Positions 13,286-25,100 of a stretch of 64,000 bases of DNA are shown piece after piece. Numbering within the stretch: the stretch's first letter is position 1; every line of letters begins with the position of its first letter. The stretch comes from Escherichia coli (lineage in GTDB: Bacteria; Pseudomonadota; Gammaproteobacteria; Enterobacterales; Enterobacteriaceae): the NCBI RefSeq assembly GCF_030013595.1, contig NZ_CP122768.1. One strand, written 5' to 3'. The notes below the pieces were generated by a model that saw nothing but the letters and a program-made list of their open reading frames with translations, ran no database searches and was not told where the DNA came from. The position numbers and the translations under genes were made by a program.

Positions 13286-13738
13286 ATGATCTGGATAATG
13301 CTCGCCACGCTGGCGGTGGTGTTTGTGGTTGGTTTTCGGGTGCTGACATCCGGGGCCAGAAAAGCGATTCGCCGTCTCAGCGATCGGCTGAATATCGATG
13401 TCGTACCCGTGGAGTCGATGGTCGATCAAATGGGAAAGTCAGCCGGTGACGAATTTTTACGTTATTTGCATCGCCCGGATGAGTCGCACCTGCAAAACGC
13501 CGCGCAGGTGTTGCTCATCTGGCAAATTGTCATTGTCGATGGTAGCGAACAGAACCTGCTGCAATGGCATCGGATTTTACAAAAAGCCCGCCTTGCCGCT
13601 CCCATTACCGATGCTCAGGTCAGGCTGGCGCTGGGTTTTCTGCGCGAAACCGAACCTGAAATGCAGGATATTAATGCTTTTCAGATGCGCTATAACGCGT
13701 TCTTTCAGCCTGCCGAGGGCGTTCACTGGCTGCATTAA
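13286..13738 (+). CDS. yicN: DUF1198 family protein YicN
   Basis: Product from internal ATG MIWIMLATLAVVFVVGFRVLTSGARKAIRRL... matches YicN. Confidence 0.82.
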   Translation: MIWIMLATLAVVFVVGFRVLTSGARKAIRRLSDRLNIDVVPVESMVDQMGKSAGDEFLRYLHRPDESHLQNAAQVLLIWQIVIVDGSEQNLLQWHRILQKARLAAPITDAQVRLALGFLRETEPEMQDINAFQMRYNAFFQPAEGVHWLH

Positions 13739-13744
13739 AACCGC

Positions 13745-13812
13745 TTCGTCTTATCAGCCTACAGACCGCGCCTGACCTGTCGGGTGGATAAGACGTTCAC
13801 GCCGCATCCGGT
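13745..13812. repeat. REP/BIME-like extragenic palindromic element
   Basis: GGATAAGACGTTCACGCCGCATCCGGTA resembles the reverse complement of the classic REP consensus, preceded by an inverted partial copy (CGTCTTATCAGCCTACAG). Confidence 0.65.
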
Positions 13813-13853
13813 ATCGGAACTGACAGTAGGTGAACGCATTATCTACGTTCTAT

Positions 13854-14177
13854 TTACAGCAGCACCTCCAGCCCGTGTTTTTGCACAATGCTGAGCAGTT
13901 TTAATGAAATGCCATTGGGGCGTTTAGCGCCACTTTCCCATTTTTGTACAGTTGAAACGCTGGTATTGAGATAGTGAGCGAAGACGGGCTGACTCACTTT
14001 TAATTTTTCCCGCAGTGCTTTTATCTCAACAGGTTGTAAGTCTTGCACGCTGGTCAGGCAGGCTTTGTCAAAAGTACGCATCGTTTCGGCAGAAATCGCA
14101 TCGACGCTGGACAATCCAGCCGCTGCGCTGTGAATAGCCTCAAATGCAGGACTTTTAAATTTAGTTTTTGCAGTCAT
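13854..14177 (-). CDS. XRE-family helix-turn-helix protein, candidate antitoxin (HigA-like)
   Basis: 107-aa product with C-terminal HTH (LKVSQPVFAHYLNTSVSTVQKWESGAKRP); overlaps the 3-prime end of the upstream small ORF by 17 nt. Confidence 0.6.
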   Translation of the reverse strand: MTAKTKFKSPAFEAIHSAAAGLSSVDAISAETMRTFDKACLTSVQDLQPVEIKALREKLKVSQPVFAHYLNTSVSTVQKWESGAKRPNGISLKLLSIVQKHGLEVLL

Positions 14178-14520
14178 AGCAGATCTCTGTCAGTTCTTTA
14201 GTGTTAATCATTGCTGTTAGTTGGGCTTTCGTCAGGAAGGCATAATGCTTTGCAAGTTCACGAAACCCAGCCAGTTCCTGACTATTGATGTTCGACATAT
14301 CCTGTTTTGCATATAAAAACGTGTAAAACCAATTGCTTCCCCCTTTCGCCAGAATAATTGCACGCTCACGATTTTTGTGAAGGCGCTTTTTAAAAACGCC
14401 ACCACCAAGTACATCAGCTTTACCTTGTTCCGTTTCTAAAATGGCCCGGCACAACTCTTCATCTGTTATTGCATGAGACCTGGCTTCCCTTGCAAACCAT
14501 TTCGTTTTAAACACGCGCAT
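14161..14520 (-). CDS. Candidate toxin of a HigB/RelE-like type II toxin-antitoxin pair (toxin-first arrangement)
   Basis: 119-aa basic protein immediately upstream of, and overlapping, the XRE gene; family assignment is from gene context and size, not a recognised motif. Confidence 0.45.
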   Translation of the reverse strand: MRVFKTKWFAREARSHAITDEELCRAILETEQGKADVLGGGVFKKRLHKNRERAIILAKGGSNWFYTFLYAKQDMSNINSQELAGFRELAKHYAFLTKAQLTAMINTKELTEICYDCKN

Positions 14521-14746
14521 ATCGTTGAGGTCCTGTTATTAAAGTATATCACCAAGTGCAATACTTTATCCCTTGTTCCCAACACAATCGCGAAAATACA
14601 TATCACCTTGCCCTATGATTTTTATTTCTTCGAGCAGCCTCGAACTTTCCCACAACACCGTAAAAGTTGCAAAAACGTTAAATGCGTCACACATTTCAAT
14701 GTTAAAGTGGTCGGCTTTTCCCCTGAAACATGCCACGGGTAACACC

Positions 14747-15931
14747 ATGAGTGAATTTATTGCCGAAAACCGCGGCGCGGATGCCATCACCCGACCGAAC
14801 TGGTCAGCCGTTTTCTCGGTGGCGTTTTGTGTCGCCTGTCTGATTATCGTTGAGTTTTTGCCCGTCAGTTTGTTGACGCCAATGGCCCAGGATTTAGGCA
14901 TTTCGGAGGGGGTTGCCGGGCAATCGGTGACCGTGACCGCCTTTGTGGCAATGTTTGCCAGTTTGTTTATTACCCAGACAATTCAGGCCACTGACCGCCG
15001 CTACGTTGTTATTTTGTTTGCCGTTTTGCTGACGCTCTCCTGCTTGCTGGTTTCCTTTGCTAACTCATTCAGTTTGCTTTTAATCGGTCGTGCCTGTCTG
15101 GGGCTGGCGCTGGGCGGGTTCTGGGCGATGTCGGCGTCGCTGACCATGCGTCTGGTGCCGCCGCGTACGGTGCCGAAGGCGCTGTCGGTGATCTTCGGCG
15201 CGGTTTCTATTGCGCTGGTGATTGCCGCGCCGTTGGGCAGTTTTTTAGGCGAGCTTATCGGTTGGCGCAATGTCTTTAATGCGGCGGCGGTGATGGGCGT
15301 GCTGTGTATTTTCTGGATTATCAAATCATTGCCCTCGCTGCCAGGCGAACCCTCGCATCAGAAACAAAATACTTTCCGCTTATTACAACGTCCGGGAGTG
15401 ATGGCAGGGATGATCGCCATCTTCATGTCTTTCGCCGGGCAGTTTGCTTTCTTCACGTATATTCGCCCGGTGTATATGAACCTGGCGGGATTCAGCGTGG
15501 ATGGCTTAACGCTGGTGCTGTTGAGTTTTGGTATCGCCAGCTTTATTGGTACGTCGCTTTCGTCGTTCATTCTTAAACGTTCGGTAAAACTGGCCTTAGC
15601 GGGTGCGCCGTTAATACTGGCTGTGAGTGCGTTGGTGCTGACGTTGTGGGGAAGCGATAAAATCGTTGCTACCGGCGTAGCGATTATCTGGGGGCTAACT
15701 TTTGCATTGGTTCCGGTCGGCTGGTCAACGTGGATCACTCGCTCACTGGCCGATCAGGCAGAAAAAGCCGGGTCTATTCAGGTGGCGGTTATTCAGCTTG
15801 CTAATACCTGTGGCGCGGCAATCGGTGGTTATGCGCTGGATAATATTGGTCTGACTTCGCCGTTGATGTTGTCCGGCACATTGATGTTGCTGACGGCGTT
15901 ATTGGTCACCGCAAAGGTGAAAATGAAGTAA
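14747..15931 (+). CDS. nepI: Purine ribonucleoside efflux pump NepI (MFS)
   Basis: Product from internal [40 protein letters not shown]... with 12-TM MFS character matches NepI (YicM). Confidence 0.88.
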
Positions 15932-16132: not shown

Positions 16133-19100
16133 ATGGCAGGGAAAGCGCATGGGAATGGCGATCGTCGGGGCGATAACACCATATGTGGATTGGGGGATCG
16201 TCTACGTCGTCTGACCGCCGGTATTTGCCTGATAACACAAACTATTTTCCCTGTTATGGCTGCTGCCCCTACGCATATTAATCCTGCGCATTCGGATACT
16301 GCCGCGTCACTGATCCTGCCAAACGTTAAAACTATTCCATATACCCTGGGTGCGTTGGAATCGCCACCAACGGTCGCGGCACGCTTTGGTATCACCGTTG
16401 ATGAATTACGTCGCCTGAATCAGTTCCGTACCTTTGCGCGGGGCTTTGACAATGTGCGTCAGGGCGATGAAATAGATGTGCCCCTCATTAACAGTAACAG
16501 CCCTGAAGCGCGCAACCTGAAAGCAATGCAGATGGAGCGCGACGGCAAAGATCCGCAAATGCAGGTCGCGGAAGTGGCGCAGCAAAGCGGAACACTTTTA
16601 GCTCGCGATATGGACAGCGAACAGGCGGCGAGTATGGCGCGTGGCTGGGTGGCTTCTTCTGCATCTGCGCAGGCAACGGACTGGCTCAGTCGTTGGGGAA
16701 CTGCCAGGGTATCTCTTGGTGTGGATGAAGATTTCAGCCTTAAAAGCTCGTCATTTGAATTTCTCCATCCTTGGTACGAAACGCCGGATAACCTGGTCTT
16801 CAGCCAGCACACACTTCACCGTACGGATGATCGCACTCAAACCAACCACGGTATCGGCTGGCGTTATTTCACATCGAGCTGGATGTCTGGCGTCAATATG
16901 TTTATCGATCATGACCTGACCCGCTATCACACCCGAACCGGGATGGGCGTTGAATACTGGCGCGATTACCTGAAACTGAGCGGCAACGGTTATCTGCGCC
17001 TCAGTAACTGGCGTAGTGCACCGGAACTGGACAATGACTATGAAGCACGTCCGGCGAACGGTTGGGATCTTCGCGCCGAAGGCTGGTTACCGGCCTGGCC
17101 GCAGCTGGGCGGAAAGCTGGTCTATGAACAATATTATGGCGATGAAGTGGCGCTGTTTGGTAAAGACGAGCGACAAAATGATCCTCACGCGATTACCGCA
17201 GGTTTGAGTTACACCCCCGTTCCCCTGATCTCCTTTAGTGCCGAGCAACGGCAGGGCAAACAGGGAGAAAACGACACCCGAATTGGTATGGAGTTGACGT
17301 TGCAACCCGGTCATTCACTGCAAAAACAGCTCGATCCGGCTGAAGTTGCAGCACGACGCAGCCTTGCGGGCAGTCGCTATGACCTGGTCGATCGTAATAA
17401 CAATATTGTCCTCGAATATCGCAAGAAAGAGCTGGTGCGGTTGACGCTGACCGATCCGCTGAAAGGCAAGCCGGGTGAGGTTAAATCGCTGGTTTCTTCC
17501 TTGCAAACCAAATATGCGCTGAAAGGTTATGACATTGAAGCCGCCTCCCTGCAATCAGCGGGCGGAAAAGTAGCTGTTTCCGGCAAGGATATTCAGGTCA
17601 CCATTCCTCCCTACCGATTCACGGCAATGCCTGAAACCGACAACACTTACCCGATAGCGGTTACAGCGCAAGATTCGAAAGGAAATTTCTCCCGGCGTGA
17701 AGAAAGTATGGTGGTCGTGGAAAAACCCACACTAAGCCTCGCCGATTCAACGCTTTCTGTCGATCTGCAAATCCTGCTTGCTGATGGAAAATCAACCTCA
17801 ACGCTGACCTATACCGCGCGAGATTCCAGCGGCAAGCCGATCCCCGGTATGACGTTAAAAACACAGGCAAAAGGTTTGCAGGATTTCGCCTTAAGCGAAT
17901 GGAAAGACAACGGCAACGGAACCTATACCCAAATAGTTACCGCCGGGAAGACGTCTGGCGCGTTATCGCTGATGCCGCAATTTAACGGCGACGATATCGC
18001 TAAGACGCCGGCGCTGATTGCTATCGTGGCGAATACGGCATCCCGCGCTGACTCCACGATTGAGACAGACCAGGATAATTACGTCGCGGGTAAGCCGATA
18101 GTCGTTAAAGTGACCCTGAAAGATGATAACGGCAACGGGGTTACCGGAAGAAAAGAACTTCTTAAACAAGCCGTTAAAGTAGACAACACGAAGGCTGATG
18201 CCGTTAGTGCCTGGACGGAAGAAAGTGAGGGAATTTACAAAGCAAGCTATACGGCCCATCTCATTGGCGACAAATTAACGGCCCAGCTGACGATGCCGGG
18301 CTGGCAAACCAAACATTCGGATGCGTTCAGTATTGCGGGTGATAAAGATACCGCCAAAATCGCAGCGATGCAGATCACCGCGAATAACGCAGTTGCCAGA
18401 CGCGATCACAATACCGTCGCTGTGACGGTCAGGGATGTGCATCAAAATTTACTGCAGGGACAAAATGTTACCTTCACGGTCGTGAATGGTGCGGCGGTTT
18501 TTGCCGATCCAAATGGCGGTATTGTGACGACAGATAAAGACGGGATTGCCAGCGTTAACCTTGCCAGTGACCAGGCGGTAAACAGTCTTATCAAGGCCGA
18601 GACCAATGGCAGTAGTCAGTCTGTGGAAGTGAGCTTTATCACTGGCGATATCTCGCAGCTGACTTCCACCATCAAGACGGACGATGTGTCATACACCGCG
18701 GGTGGCAAGATAAAAGTGTCCGTCACCCTTATGGATGAGCAGAAAAACCTGGTGAAAGGGATGGCTTCGCTGCTGGCGGGTAGCGGTGTGGTCGAGGTGA
18801 GCGGTACAGATAAAAATGAAACGGGTAACTGGAGCGAAGAGTCTGACGGCGTTTATACCACCACCCGAACCGCGAAGATTGCTGGCGATCGCCATTACGC
18901 CACGCTGAAACTATCGACATGGAGTAGCGCGCAGCAATCCGATGCGTATGCCATCCGCGAAAGCGGAGCTGTGTTGGCTTATTCCTCCATCGTTACCGAC
19001 AAAATGGCCTACACCGCGGGCGGTGCGATAAAAGTTACGGTAACACTCAAGGATAGCTATGAAAACCTGGTCGGGGGGCAACGAGACGCTATCAATCAGG

Positions 19101-22100
19101 TTATCCAGCTGCCAAATACAAAAGCGGAAAGCATCGCCTGGAATGAAGATCAAAAAGGAATTTATACCGCAACGTATACCGCATTACTCCCTGGCACCGG
19201 TTTAAAAGCACAGCTACAGATCTCCGGCTGGGCGAGCGCTTTGACTTCAAATGATTACAGTATTAGTGGCGATGCCGCCAGCGCACAAATTGTCGCGATG
19301 CAAGTGACAACGGGTAACCCGGATGTGCTGGCGAATGGCAGCGATCGACATACGGTGAATGTCCGGGTGGAAGATCAGTTTGGTAATGTGCTGCCGGAGC
19401 AGACCGTCACCTTTACGGTGACGAAAGGGGCGGCTGTATTTGCCAATGCAAGGCAGAGCGCAGATATCAGGACGGATGCGCATGGCATGGCAGAGGTTGA
19501 TCTGAGCAGTACCGTAGCGGATGCCAGCACTGTTGAGGCTAAGGTCAATCAAAGCAGCGATAGTAAAACGGTGAACTTTGTTGCTGATGTTAGCACGGCG
19601 CAGGTCGCGGAGCTGGTGGTCATTAAGGATGGTTCAGAGGCGGACGGTTCGACGGCGAACACGCTGCGGGTGAAGGTCACCGATGCGTTCGGTAATACGC
19701 TTGCCGGGCAGACGGTCAGCGTGTTGGCAGGCAACGGTGCCACGACTGCTCCGACGGTCACCACGCAGCCGGATGGCACGGTGGAGATCAGTGTCACCAG
19801 CCAGACCGCCGGAACCAGTGTGATCACCGCCAGCGTCAACAACAGCAGCCAGAGCCGGGATGTGACGTTTATCGCCGATGTCAGGACGGCGCAGATCGCG
19901 GATCTGGTGGTCACCCGGGATAACTCGGTGGCGGACGGTTCGACGGCGAACACGCTGCGGGCGAGGGTGACCGATGCGTTCGGTAATGCGCTTGCTGGGC
20001 AGACAGTCAGCGTGTTGGCGGACAACGGTGCAACGGTCGCTTCGACGATGACCACAAAGCCGGACGGCACGGTGGAAATCAGTGTCACCAGTCAGACCGC
20101 CGGAATCAGTGCGGTCACCGCCAGCATCAACAACAGCAGCCAGAGCCGGAACGTGACGTTTGTCGCCGATGTCAGGACGGCTCAGATCGCGGACCTGGTG
20201 GTCATTAAGGACGACTCAGTGGCAGACGGTGCAATGGCGAATATGCTGCGGGCGAGGGTCACCGATGCGTTCGGTAATGCGCTTGCCGGGCAGACGGTCA
20301 GCGTGTTGGCGGACAACAGCGCAACGACTGCCCCGACGGTAATCACAGAGCCGGACGGCACGGTGGAGATCAGTGTCACCAGCCAGACGGCGGGAGCCAG
20401 TACTGTCACTGCCAGCATCAACAGCAGCAGCCTGAGCCGGACCGTGACGTTTATCGCCGATGTCAGGACGGCGCAGATCGCGGATCTGGTAGTCACCCGG
20501 GATAACTCAGTGGCAGACGGTGCAATGGCGAATATGCTGCGGGCGAGGGTCACCGATGCGTTCGGTAATGCGCTTGCCGGGCAGACGGTCAGCGTGATGG
20601 CAGACAACGGTGCCACGACTGCTCCGACGGTAATCACAGAGCCGGACGGCACGGTGGAGATCAGTGTCACCAGCCAGACGGCGGGCAGCAGTGCGGTCAC
20701 CGCCAGCATCAACAGCAGCAGCCAGAGCCGGAACGTGACGTTTGTCGCCGATGTCAGGACGGCGCAGATCGCGGACCTGGTGGTCATTAAGGACGACTCA
20801 GTGGCAGACGGTGCAATGGCGAATATGCTGCGGGCGAGGGTCACCGATGCGTTCGGTAATGCGCTTGCCGGGCAGACGGTCAGCGTGTTGGCAGGCAACG
20901 GTGCCACGACTGCTCCGACGGTCACCACGCAGCCGGACGGCACGGTGGAGATCTCTGTCACCAGCCAGACGGCGGGCACCAGTGCGGTCACCGCCAGCAT
21001 TAACAACAGCAGCCAGAGCCGGAACGTGACGTTTATCGCCGATGTCAGCACGGCGCAGATCGCGAGTCTGGAGGTGACGCAGGATAACGCCGTGGCAGAC
21101 GGTGCGACGGCGAACACGCTGCGGGTGAGGGTGACTGATGCATTCGGTAATGCGCTTGGCGGACAGACGGTCAGCGTGATGGCAGACAACGGTGCAACGG
21201 TGTCTCCGACGGTCAGTACAGGGCCGGACGGCACGGTGGAAATCAGTGTCACCAGCCAGACGGCAGGCACCAGTGCGGTCACTGCCAGCATTAACAGCAG
21301 CACCCTGAGCCGGAACGTCACGTTTGTCGCGGATGTCAGGACGGCGCAGATCGCGGACCTGGTGGTCATTAAGGACGACTCAGTGGCAGACGGTGCAATG
21401 GCGAATACGTTGCGGGTGAGGGTGACCGATGCGTTCGGTAATGCGCTTGCCGGACAGACGGTCAGCGTGATGGCGGACAACGGTGCAGCGGTCGCTTCGA
21501 CGGTCACCACAAAGCCGGACGGCACGGTGGAGATCAGTGTCACCAGCCAGACGGCAGGAATCAGTGTGGTCACCGCCAGCATCAACAACAGCATCCAGAG
21601 TCAGAACGTGACGTTTGTCGCGGATGTCAGGACGGCGCAGATCGCTGATCTGGTGGTGACGCAGGACGGCTCAGTGGCAGACGGTTCGACGGCGAACATG
21701 CTGCGGGTGAGGGTGACGGATGCGTTCGGTAATGCGCTTGCCGGGCAGACGGTCAGCGTGATGGCAGGCAACGGCGCAACGGTGTCTCCGACGGTCACTA
21801 CAGAGCCGGACGGCACGGTGGAGATCAGTGTCACCAGTCAGACGGCGGGCACCAGTGCCGTCACTGCAACCATCAACAGCGGCAGCCAGAGCCGGGATGT
21901 GACGTTTATCGCCGATGTCAGGACGGCGCAGATAGCGAGTCTGGAGGTGACGCAGGATAACTCAGTGGCTGACGGCGCAATGGCGAACACGCTGCGGGTG
22001 AAGGTCACCGATGCGTTCGGTAATGCGCTTGCCGGGCAGACGGTCAGCGTGACGGTAGGCAACGGCGCAACGGTCGCTCCGACTGCCATCACAGGGCCGG

Positions 22101-25100
22101 ACGGTACGGTGGAGATCAGTGTCACCAGTCAGACGGCGGGCACCAGTGCCGTCACCGCAACCATCAACAGCAGCAGCCAGAGCCGGAACGTGACGTTTAT
22201 CGCCGATGTCAGCACGGCGCAGATCGCGAGTCTGGAGGTGACGCAGGATAACGCCGTGGCAGACGGTTCGACGGCGAACACGCTGCGGGCGAGGGTCACG
22301 GATGCGTTCGGTAATACGCTTGCCGGGCAGACGGTCAGCGTGACGGCAGACAACAGTGCAATGGTCGCTCTGACGGTGATTACAGAGCCGGACGGCACAG
22401 TGGAGATCAGTGTCACCAGTCAGACGGCAGGCACCAGTACAGTCACTGCCAGCATCAACAGCAGCAGCCTGAGCCGGAACTTGACGTTTGTCGCCGATGT
22501 CAGCACGGCAAAAATAGCGGATCTGGTCGTTATCCAGGATAACTCAGTGGCTGACGGCGCAATGGCGAACACGCTGCGGATGAGGGTCACGGATGCATTC
22601 GGTAATACGCTTGGCGGACAGACGGTCAGCGTGACGGCAGACAACAGTGCAATGGTCGCTTCGACTGTCATCACAGGGCCGGACGGTACGGTGGAGATCA
22701 GTGTCACCAGCCAGACGGCGGGGATCAGTACTGTCACTGCATCCATCAACAACAGCAGCCTGAGCCGGGACGTGACGTTTGTTGCCGATGTCAGGACGGC
22801 GCAGATCGCTGATCTGGTGGTCATTAAGGATGGTTCAGAGGCGGACGGTTCGACGGCGAACACGCTGCGGGCGAGGGTGACCGATGCGTTCGGGAATGCA
22901 CTTGCCGGGCAGACGGTCAGCGTGTTGGCGGACAACGGCGCAACGACAGCCCCGACGGTCATCACAGAGCCGGACGGCACGGTGGAGATCAGTGTCACCA
23001 GTCAGACGGCGGGAGTCAGTACTGTCACTGCCAGCATCAACAGCAGCAGCCTGAGCCGGAACGTGACGTTTGTCGCGGATGTCAGGACGGCGCAGATCGC
23101 GGATCTGGTGGTCATTAAGGATGGTTCAGAGGCGGACGGTTCGACGGAGAACACGCTGCGGGCGAGGGTGACCGATGCATTCGGTAATGCGCTTGCCGGG
23201 CAGACGGTCAGCGTGTTGGCGGACAACGGCGCAACGGTCGCCCCGACGGTCACCACGCAGCCGGACGGTACGGTGGAGATCTCTGTTACCAGCCAGACGG
23301 CGGGAGTCAGTGCGGTCACCGCCAGCATCAACAACAGCAGCCTGAGCCAGAGCGTGAAGTTTATTGCCGATGTCAGCACGGCGCAGATCGCGATGCTGGA
23401 AGTGACGCAGGATAACGCGGTGGCAGACGGTTCGACGGCGAATACGCTGCAGGTGAAGGTCACCGATGCTAACGGTAATACGCTTGCCGGACAGGCGGTC
23501 AGCGTGTTGGCAGGCAACAGCGCAACGGTTGCTTCGACGGTGACCACAAAGCCGGACGGCACGGTGGAGATCAGTGTCACCAGTCAGACGGCAGGCACCA
23601 GTACAGTCACTGCCAGCATCAACAGCAGCAGCCTGAGCCGGAATGTGACGTTTGTCGCCGATGTCAGCACGGCAAAAATAGCGGATCTGGTCGTTATCCA
23701 GGATAACGCGGTGGCTGACGGCGCAATGGCGAACACGCTGCGGATGAGGGTCACGGATGCATTCGGTAATACGCTTGGCGGACAGACGGTCAGCGTGACG
23801 GCAGACAACAGTGCAATGGTCGCTTCGACGGTGACCACAAAGCCGGACGGTACGGTGGAGATCAGTGTCACCAGCCAGACGGCGGGGATCAGTACTGTCA
23901 CTGCATCCATCAACAACAGCAGCCTGAGCCGGGACGTGACGTTTGTCGCCGATGTCAGCACGGCAAAAATAGCGGATCTGGTCGTTATCCAGGATAACGC
24001 GGTGGCTGACGGCGCAATGGCGAACACGCTGCAGGTGAGGGTCACCGATGCATTCGGTAATGCGCTTGCCGGGCAGACGGTCAGCGTGATGGCAGGTAAC
24101 GGCGCAACGGTCGCTCCGACGGTGATCACAGAGTCGGACGGGACGGTGGAAATCAGCGTCACCAGCCAGACGGCGGGAGTCAGTGCAGTCACTGCAACCA
24201 TCAACAACAGCAGCCAGAGCCGGAACGTGACGTTTATCGCCGATGTCAGCACGGCGCAGATCGCGAGTCTGGAGGTGACGCAGGATAACGCCGTGGCAGA
24301 CGGTGCGACGGCGAATACGTTGCGGGCGAGGGTGACCGACGCATTCGGTAATACGCTGGGCGGGCAGACGGTCAGCGTGTTGGCGGATAACGGCGCAACG
24401 GTTGCCCCGACGGTCACCACGCAGCCGGATGGCACGGTGGAGATCTCTGTCACCAGTCAGACGGCGGGAGTCAGTGCGGTCACCGCCAGCATCAACAACA
24501 GCAGCCTGAGCCAGAGCGTGAAGTTTATTGCCGATGTCAGCACGGCGCAGATCGCGATGCTGGAAGTGACGCAGGATAACGCGGTGGCTGACGGCGCAAT
24601 GGCGAACACGTTGCAGGTGAAGGTCACCGATGCATTCGGTAATGCGCTTGCCGGGCAGACGGTCAGCGTGATGGCAGGCAACGGTGCCACGACTGCTCCG
24701 ACGGTCACCACGCAGCCGGACGGCACGGTGGAGATCTCTGTCACCAGCCAGACGGCAGGCACCAGTGCGGTCACTGCCAGCATCAACAGCAGCAGCCTGA
24801 GCCGGAACGTGACGTTTGTTGCCGATGTCAGGACGGCGAAGATCGCGAGTCTGGAGGTGATGCAGGATAACTCAGTGGCTGACGGCGCAATGGCGAACAC
24901 GCTACGGGTGAGGGTGACCGATGCATTCGGTAATGCGCTTGCCGGGCAGACGGTCAGCGTGTTGGCGGACAACGGCGCAACGGTCGCCCCGACGGTCACC
25001 ACGCAGCCGGACGGTACGGTGGAGATCTCTGTTACCAGCCAGACGGCGGGGATCAGTGCGGTCACAGCCAGCATCAACAGCAGCAGTCTGAGCCGGAACG

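Follow-up and report, generated by a model that had tools for sequence, protein, structure and literature searches.

A 64,000-nt stretch of an Escherichia coli genome (contig NZ_CP122768.1; hereafter the window, to whose positions all coordinates refer) contains two small overlapping genes on the minus strand, located between yicN (13286–13738, plus strand) and nepI (14747–15931, plus strand). The upstream gene (14161–14520) codes for a candidate toxin of 119 aa and the downstream gene (13854–14177) for an antitoxin of 107 aa; both start with ATG in the list of open reading frames (ORFs), and they overlap by 17 nt (14161–14177, minus strand), with the toxin stop and the antitoxin start both contained in ATGACTGCAAAAACTAA. 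The genomic context was taken from the RefSeq annotation of a strain that is identical over 13700–14750, in which the two products are named 'type II toxin-antitoxin system RelE/ParE family toxin' and 'helix-turn-helix domain-containing protein'. The original prediction, made from the sequence alone, had described a 119-aa gene followed by a 107-aa XRE-type helix-turn-helix (HTH) gene with a 17-nt overlap and had placed them between these two neighbours; the ORF list, an HTH_3 domain match and the RefSeq annotation agree with it on each count, and a first-pass reader could thus recognise the toxin-antitoxin pair from gene geometry alone.

The arrangement is that of a type II operon, with two small, adjacent and co-oriented genes for a toxin and a DNA-binding antitoxin that are inherited together. 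Both genes are present in all 1716 E. coli carrier genomes, the pair and its overlap are also found on diverse plasmids, and the 17-nt overlap is identical in the Citrobacter and Salmonella orthologs. As read from the sequence, the overlap implies a single transcript for both genes, and translation of the antitoxin is probably coupled to that of the toxin.

Comparison with Pfam assigns the toxin to PF06296, with residues 1–113 aligned to positions 1–120 of the 120-position profile (140.2 bits, E = 4.9e-41, cut-off 27). PF06296 is the family of Vibrio cholerae HigB-2 (PMC11980606), the sequence of which, checked against the PDB, also passes the family threshold, covering profile positions 8–96 of 120 only. 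The original prediction had proposed a search with hidden Markov models (HMMs) of related families; in the Pfam scan, which reached E = 1, the toxin matched none of PF05015 (HigB of Rts1), PF09907 (HigB of K-12) and PF05973 (Gp49), and no NCBIfam model is specific to it. A match to a non-toxin family, which the prediction had named as grounds for giving it up, was not what the scan returned, the whole protein being a full-length PF06296 member. The start codon conserved in the family is the ATG at 14518–14520 (MRVFKTKWF...), homologs beginning with MR[VI]FKT; RefSeq instead begins the toxin at codon 3, a GTG, giving 117 aa, and does so also in genomes that have the conserved ATG.

An AlphaFold2 model of the toxin built with 30 homologs has a predicted local distance difference test (pLDDT) score of 88.2 and a predicted template modelling (TM) score of 0.82. 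When this model was searched against the PDB with Foldseek, ranks 1–10 were all V. cholerae HigB-2 chains (E = 5e-4 to 9e-3, TM 0.51–0.61), followed at lower ranks by other RelE-type toxins, including Mycobacterium tuberculosis HigB1, YoeB and YafQ. By family and modelled fold, the toxin is a RelE-fold member of the HigBA-2 (PF06296) branch and not of the Rts1 or K-12 HigB branches. The HigBA-type module that had been proposed from gene order and sizes is thereby supported by the Pfam family, by the HigB-2-like fold and by the antitoxin match to HigA-2 described below, and is narrowed to the HigBA-2 branch.

The direct similarity to HigB-2 is weak, and we therefore gathered distant relatives of the toxin, 32 of which were aligned with HigB-2. 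In the family HMM alignment, residues K49, R51, R64, Y82 and K84 of V. cholerae HigB-2, which are discussed as its active site (PMC5416850, PMC10098735), correspond to K44, R46, R53, Y70 and K72 of the toxin; the raw MAFFT row of HigB-2 is off by one residue in strand beta2, and the register was settled by the HMM alignment. Ungapped BLAST segments between the toxin and ToxP of Coxiella burnetii agree with the same assignment, and conservation across the family is 90% or more for K44, R46, R53 and K72. A diagnostic motif, which the original prediction had failed to recognise in the toxin, is therefore present. The beta2-beta3 loop is six residues shorter than in HigB-2, and an additional C-terminal helix and strand (residues ~98–115) are common to every sampled PF06296 member except V. 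cholerae HigB-2.

The antitoxin consists of an N-terminal segment (residues ~1–45) and a C-terminal XRE-type HTH domain (residues ~46–102). HTH_3 is matched at residues 52–96 (32.9 bits, cut-off 23, E = 6.7e-8), and the best PDB matches are V. cholerae HigA-2 chains (5jaa), at residues 46–102 with E = 8.3e-10. Residues 1–45 have no domain match, are strongly conserved and align with AntitoxP of C. burnetii; this segment is presumed to bind the toxin.

Upstream of the toxin ATG, at a distance of 20–48 nt, lies an imperfect palindrome, TAAAGTATTGCAC-ttg-GTGATATACTTTA (14540–14568, minus strand), whose 13-nt arms are complementary at 11 of 13 positions. The right arm contains a candidate extended −10 element, TGaTATACT (14543–14551, minus strand), as read from the sequence, and a Shine-Dalgarno sequence, AGGA (14531–14534, minus strand), is positioned 10 nt upstream of the ATG. 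In an alignment of three genera TGnTATACT and ACAGGA are invariant, and GTG-n-TATACTT, ACAGGA and the palindrome core are conserved whereas the flanking sequence is not. The core, approximately GTATAGCAC-N3-GTGCTATAC, is kept in Citrobacter koseri and Salmonella enterica, and is perfect in C. koseri (ATAGCAC-TAA-GTGCTAT).

The V. cholerae antitoxin HigA-2 binds a single inverted repeat over the −10 element of higBA2 (PMC11006873), and by analogy the palindrome at 14540–14568 is probably an operator for an antitoxin dimer. The V. cholerae operator is likewise a single inverted repeat over the −10 but differs in sequence (TGTACGC-N5-GCGTACA). This fits with the differing residues at the base-contacting positions of HigA-2, where an alignment based on the PDB match places S75, Q78, K79 and A84 of the window antitoxin at R68, E71, N72 and R77. 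A two-hexamer promoter scanner reported nothing upstream of the toxin, and since this consensus-based scanner did not call them, both promoter and operator are to be taken as putative. Its single hit, a candidate internal antitoxin promoter within the toxin gene (14381–14354), is at the level expected by chance (1 found, 1.5 expected) and overlaps codons that differ between genera, for which reason we do not count it as a promoter.

The closest characterised relative is relBE3ST of S. Typhimurium (SL3743–SL3744, or STM3777–STM3778), described as a 667-nt module (Lobato-Marquez et al. 2015, PMC4366850). It is located at the same site beside nepI, is toxin-first, codes for 119 and 107 aa with a 17-nt overlap over a 667-nt span, and shares with the window pair the upstream palindrome, −10 element and Shine-Dalgarno sequence. 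The primers published for cloning relE3 fit the Salmonella gene that we retrieved, with one mismatch at the start and exactly at the end, and we therefore regard relBE3ST as the ortholog of the window pair. In the S. enterica locus that was read, nepI adjoins the pair but yicN is not on the other side, whereas in C. koseri the pair lies between nepI and yicN. The name is misleading, as the gene order and family are HigBA-2-like, unlike E. coli RelBE, in which the toxin belongs to PF05016 and the antitoxin comes first. Expression of RelE3ST lowers cultivability on plates, and RelB3ST has been detected by mass spectrometry (PMC4366850). A retracted 2013 PLoS Pathogens paper listing STM3777–3778 was excluded as evidence.

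A second characterised relative is the toxin-first operon of plasmid QpH1 of C. burnetii, coding for ToxP (CBUA0028) and AntitoxP (CBUA0027). ToxP is a full-length PF06296 member with the same C-terminal extension, and is 31% identical to the toxin over its whole length (E = 4e-18); AntitoxP is 55% identical to the window antitoxin over residues 5–106, the N-terminal segment included (E = 7e-37). ToxP is toxic, inhibits cell-free translation, and is neutralised by AntitoxP through direct binding, and both AntitoxP and its complex with ToxP bind their own promoter (PMC10098735). The two systems differ in that ToxP/AntitoxP is plasmid-borne and serves plasmid maintenance, whereas the pair in E. 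coli is carried on the chromosome, with no plasmid copy in 5426 genomes (0/5426), and in that ToxP has a long basic beta2-beta3 loop (GKGKRGG) that is shorter by six residues in the enterobacterial clade.

The HigB-2/HigA-2 pair of V. cholerae (PDB 5JAA, 8A0X) shares the Pfam family, the closest solved fold, equivalent active-site residues and the toxin-first order. HigB-2 is a ribosome-dependent mRNase for which R51, R64, Y82 and K84 were shown to be important (PMC5416850), but it is only ~21% identical to the toxin, lacks the C-terminal helix and strand and has the longer beta2-beta3 loop; moreover, the V. cholerae pair is within a superintegron whereas the window pair is at a conserved core-genome site. 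HigBA of Rts1 (Proteus vulgaris) and of E. coli K-12 (ygjNM) are likewise toxin-first, with a RelE-superfamily toxin and an XRE-type antitoxin, but their HigB families, PF05015 and PF09907 (PMC11980606), differ from PF06296, and P. vulgaris HigB is a weak structural match to the toxin model (rank 41, TM 0.27).

We also considered whether the pair might be orthologous to SehAB of Salmonella, and ruled this out. SehAB is STM4031/STM4030.S, as opposed to STM3777/STM3778 for the ortholog; SehB has at least 429 nt of coding sequence compared with 321 nt for the window antitoxin; and the critical SehA residues Y53, D61, H88, Y91, K93, T95, Y97 and Y98 are not matched at those positions of the toxin, compared by position number in the unaligned proteins.

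Between genera, the toxin is 71% identical to its Citrobacter and 69% to its Salmonella ortholog, and the antitoxin 85% and 80%; of the flanking proteins, NepI is 89% identical in Citrobacter and 87% in Salmonella, and YicN 83% (Citrobacter only). The ratio of non-synonymous to synonymous substitution rates (dN/dS) is ~0.03–0.06 in the three toxin or antitoxin comparisons with a usable dS; in the other three dS is saturated and no ratio is computable. These values show the pair to be under purifying selection, as judged from the sequence comparisons. Together with the Pfam E-values (4.9e-41 and 6.7e-8) and the cross-genus orthologs with the same overlap, they establish that the two ORFs are real genes and not chance occurrences. 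The conserved position, the conserved flanks and the level of divergence argue for old vertical inheritance and not for recent insertion. A recent mobile insertion was examined and rejected, as there is no integrase, there are no flanking direct repeats, and synteny is conserved in other genera.

Among complete E. coli genomes the pair was found in 1716 of 5426, always as a single chromosomal copy with coverage of at least 80%, with carriers including O25b:H4-ST131 and O157:H7/O55:H7. The original prediction was unsure whether K-12 has the pair, and this question is answered: the K-12 derivative MFDpir is without it, as is J53, which covers just 20% of the query. In a three-way alignment an 838-nt segment (13814–14651), present in the window, O157:H7 and ST131 and holding the second arm of an adjacent repeat element, both genes and the promoter region, is replaced in K-12 by 41 nt. 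A 19-nt stretch of this filler is identical at 17 of 19 positions to, and colinear with, toxin codons 29–35, a score equalled in 8 of 2000 shuffles. This one short match suggests that the K-12 site arose by deletion of an ancestral pair, of which the 19 nt would be a relic.

The carriers differ in the start of the toxin gene, which we followed by exact 32-mer searches across it, accounting for 1713 of the 1716 genomes. The codon at 14518–14520 is ATG in 1084 (two with the exact window haplotype and 1082 others); it is ATA with the rest of the ORF intact in the 491 genomes of the O157:H7 type (29% of carriers); and in 138 genomes ATA is combined with a nonsense change of codon 8 (W8stop, TGG to TAG, 14497–14499). 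In both of the W8stop genomes that were read closely, the toxin gene has lost 1 nt as well, while the antitoxin ORF is intact and its product identical to that of the window strain. The window allele is fully intact, with the ATG, the Shine-Dalgarno sequence, a full ORF and all five active-site equivalents. E. coli HS-02 (NZ_CP172818.1) was disregarded; its pair is 76.7% identical, with single-base indels and substitutions evenly spread, resembling uncorrected long-read assembly error. Relatives occur in 177 plasmid records from many genera; enterobacterial plasmid copies of the pair are rare and distant, a copy on a Klebsiella aerogenes plasmid being 58% identical.

Taken together, we favour the interpretation that the pair is a self-repressed type II module, in which a HigB-2-like toxin acts as a ribosome-dependent mRNA endonuclease and a dimeric HTH antitoxin both neutralises the toxin and binds the palindrome, and we put the probability of this at a little under 80%. 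The operon would be transcribed leftward, divergently from nepI, probably from the extended −10 promoter. Free toxin would most likely enter the ribosomal A site and cleave translating mRNA, halting protein synthesis, with K44, R46, R53, Y70 and K72 in the parts played by K49, R51, R64, Y82 and K84 in V. cholerae HigB-2. The antitoxin, probably made by translational coupling, would bind and neutralise the toxin through its conserved N-terminal segment and, dimerising through the C-terminal XRE HTH domain, would bind the palindrome over the −10 to repress its own operon; its loss, classically by proteolysis, would free the toxin. Here we infer toxicity, RNA cleavage, neutralisation and operator binding for this allele by analogy with its homologs. 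The pair itself appears to be an old, vertically inherited resident of the nepI–yicN region in the Enterobacteriaceae, and it is being lost in E. coli, through deletion in K-12-type strains, through the change of start codon to ATA, or through nonsense mutation of the toxin.

Several observations weigh against this interpretation. Searching the PDB with the toxin by phmmer gave nothing meaningful and no match to V. cholerae HigB-2, and hhalign of a close-homolog profile against HigB-2 returned a probability of 4%; the link to HigB-2 needed Pfam, the fold search and the wider family HMM. The Y70 position is Y or F within the family, with F in several homologs, and the AlphaFold2 monomer model of the antitoxin is of low confidence (pLDDT 64) and was not used. 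RNA cleavage is demonstrated only for V. cholerae HigB-2, an atypical member without the C-terminal extension, and for ToxP inhibition of translation was shown but cleavage was not (PMC10098735). RelB3ST did not neutralise RelE3ST in the single published assay (PMC4366850), and SehA, a HigB-like toxin and predicted RNase, instead inhibits RNase III (PMC12817084). Literature searches using protein accessions, the name 'yicN' and a CFT073 toxin-antitoxin study returned no experiments on the E. coli proteins, the 'higBA' of the CFT073 study being the K-12-type locus and not the window pair. Finally, the pair is absent from 3710 of the 5426 complete genomes (68%) and is decaying in others, from which it follows that it is dispensable.

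The last point raises the possibility that the pair is a decaying remnant, with a toxin that in this allele is no longer appreciably toxic and a locus kept through its antitoxin or by inertia. Besides the absence from most genomes, the 491 carriers with ATA in place of ATG and the 138 with the codon-8 stop point this way, as does the faster divergence of the toxin than of the antitoxin, and there is precedent in the Salmonella toxins HigBST and CcdBST, which are reported to be non-toxic though they are orthologs of active toxins (PMC4366850). The window allele, however, retains every element listed above from start codon to active-site equivalents, the toxin dN/dS between genera is ~0.06 in the single comparison with a usable dS, the Salmonella ortholog is toxic (PMC4366850), and coverage of the pair is at least 80% in all carriers. 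The 138 dead alleles represent one nonsense haplotype, which fits with selection against an active toxin and not with neutral drift. We consider a remnant unlikely on this evidence. Somewhat less likely still is that the canonical PF06296 clade, with its C-terminal extension and, in enterobacteria, its shortened loop, behaves unlike V. cholerae HigB-2, either acting, like SehA, on a target other than A-site mRNA or being insufficiently controlled by the adjacent antitoxin, so that another factor is required; that RelB3ST did not neutralise RelE3ST hints at the latter, and were it true the series of ATG, ATA and W8stop alleles would reflect selection against a poorly controlled toxin.

It is also conceivable, but improbable, that the toxin is active on a target other than mRNA on the ribosome, as SehA is on RNase III, perhaps with a contribution from the C-terminal extension (residues ~98–115). 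SehA is a known case of a HigB-like protein that is not an RNase (PMC12817084), the extension is present in all sampled PF06296 members except V. cholerae HigB-2, and for the full-length member ToxP the published activity is inhibition of translation and not cleavage (PMC10098735). On the other hand, SehA is without the canonical active-site residues (PMC12817084) that the toxin and its family conserve, SehAB is a separate Salmonella locus (STM4030–4031 as opposed to STM3777–3778), and ToxP blocks cell-free synthesis, as expected if it acts on translation directly (PMC10098735). We find it very improbable that the role of the pair is abortive-infection phage defence, or that the antitoxin acts as an anti-addiction factor against plasmid-borne relatives, in place of a stress response. 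A defence role is discussed for RelE/ParE toxins (PMC11980606), relatives occur on plasmids of many genera (the 177 records above), and the two dead-toxin genomes that were read still have an intact antitoxin; but no PADLOC model matches the toxin, there are no adjacent phage or defence genes, the one match in a phage collection is a Salmonella chromosomal contig, and the plasmid copies in enterobacteria are rare and distant. Such roles concern function and not mechanism and are compatible with a self-repressed HigB-2-like module, and nothing observed here supports them.

The module is already known, in that RefSeq annotates it as toxin-antitoxin, its Salmonella ortholog has been named and tested for toxicity, and its family includes solved structures and a characterised full-length member. 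Its significance beyond housekeeping is small: an unnamed E. coli locus is now tied to Salmonella relBE3ST and to the HigBA-2/ToxP family, which the name 'relBE3' conceals. Three curiosities remain: the failure of neutralisation reported for Salmonella, the ATA start found in 29% of carriers, and the extra C-terminal helix and strand of PF06296. E. coli nevertheless has, at a single fixed locus, a natural series of alleles that could be used to study the decay of chromosomal toxin-antitoxin systems, and K-12 a clean null host for the pair.

Just 3' of the antitoxin stop is a pair of repetitive extragenic palindromic (REP) sequences resembling a bacterial interspersed mosaic element (BIME), at 13784–13846, in accord with the REP/BIME element that the original prediction had placed next to the genes. 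The core (13786–13809) has one mismatch to the REP core, with 0 such matches in 100 shuffles; a degenerate REP pattern gave 0 matches whereas the plain core did match. It has inverted-repeat partners at 13747–13755 and, as a degenerate arm, at 13830–13846 (17-nt arms, 82% complementary). A match to naRNA4, a REP-derived Rfam family, at 13782–13847 is weak (26.9 bits, below the gathering threshold), and the fold of the REP pair is modest (z = −1.7). Judged by its position, the REP pair is a possible 3' hairpin common to the convergent yicN and antitoxin transcripts.

Elsewhere in the window we noted several further features. Beyond nepI, a single 3806-aa ORF on the plus strand (16133–27553; iatC in RefSeq) codes at its N-terminus for an inverse-autotransporter beta domain followed by Invasin_D3/Big_1, the remainder being a long run of near-identical ~100-aa repeats. 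Strain HCP5S3_I2 is 100% identical over yicN–nepI, but its iatC is annotated as 2162 aa with a separate 747-aa ORF, and the repeat number or continuity therefore differs between the strains or their assemblies. Between nepI/iatC and yicS is a type III secretion-related island (27686–33822, minus strand) that is absent from K-12 and from O157:H7 86-24. It codes for a HilA-like regulator (eilA; 538 aa, Trans_reg_C and TPR domains), intact in the window and split by the insertion sequence IS1 in HCP5S3_I2, as well as an IpaD/SipD-type tip protein, a SipB/SseC-type translocon and a 376-aa ORF that matches nothing in Pfam. At the other end of the window, uhpB (5430–6935, plus strand) is an uninterrupted 501-aa ORF and in the otherwise very similar HCP5S3_I2 is annotated as a pseudogene with an internal stop; the differences in uhpB, iatC and eilA indicate that the window strain is related to but distinct from HCP5S3_I2. 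Two ORFs of 435 and 482 aa in the ilvN–uhpA interval (1693–3000 and 3233–4681, plus strand) matched no Pfam family at a cut-off of E = 0.001, and both are annotated as 'hypothetical protein' in RefSeq.

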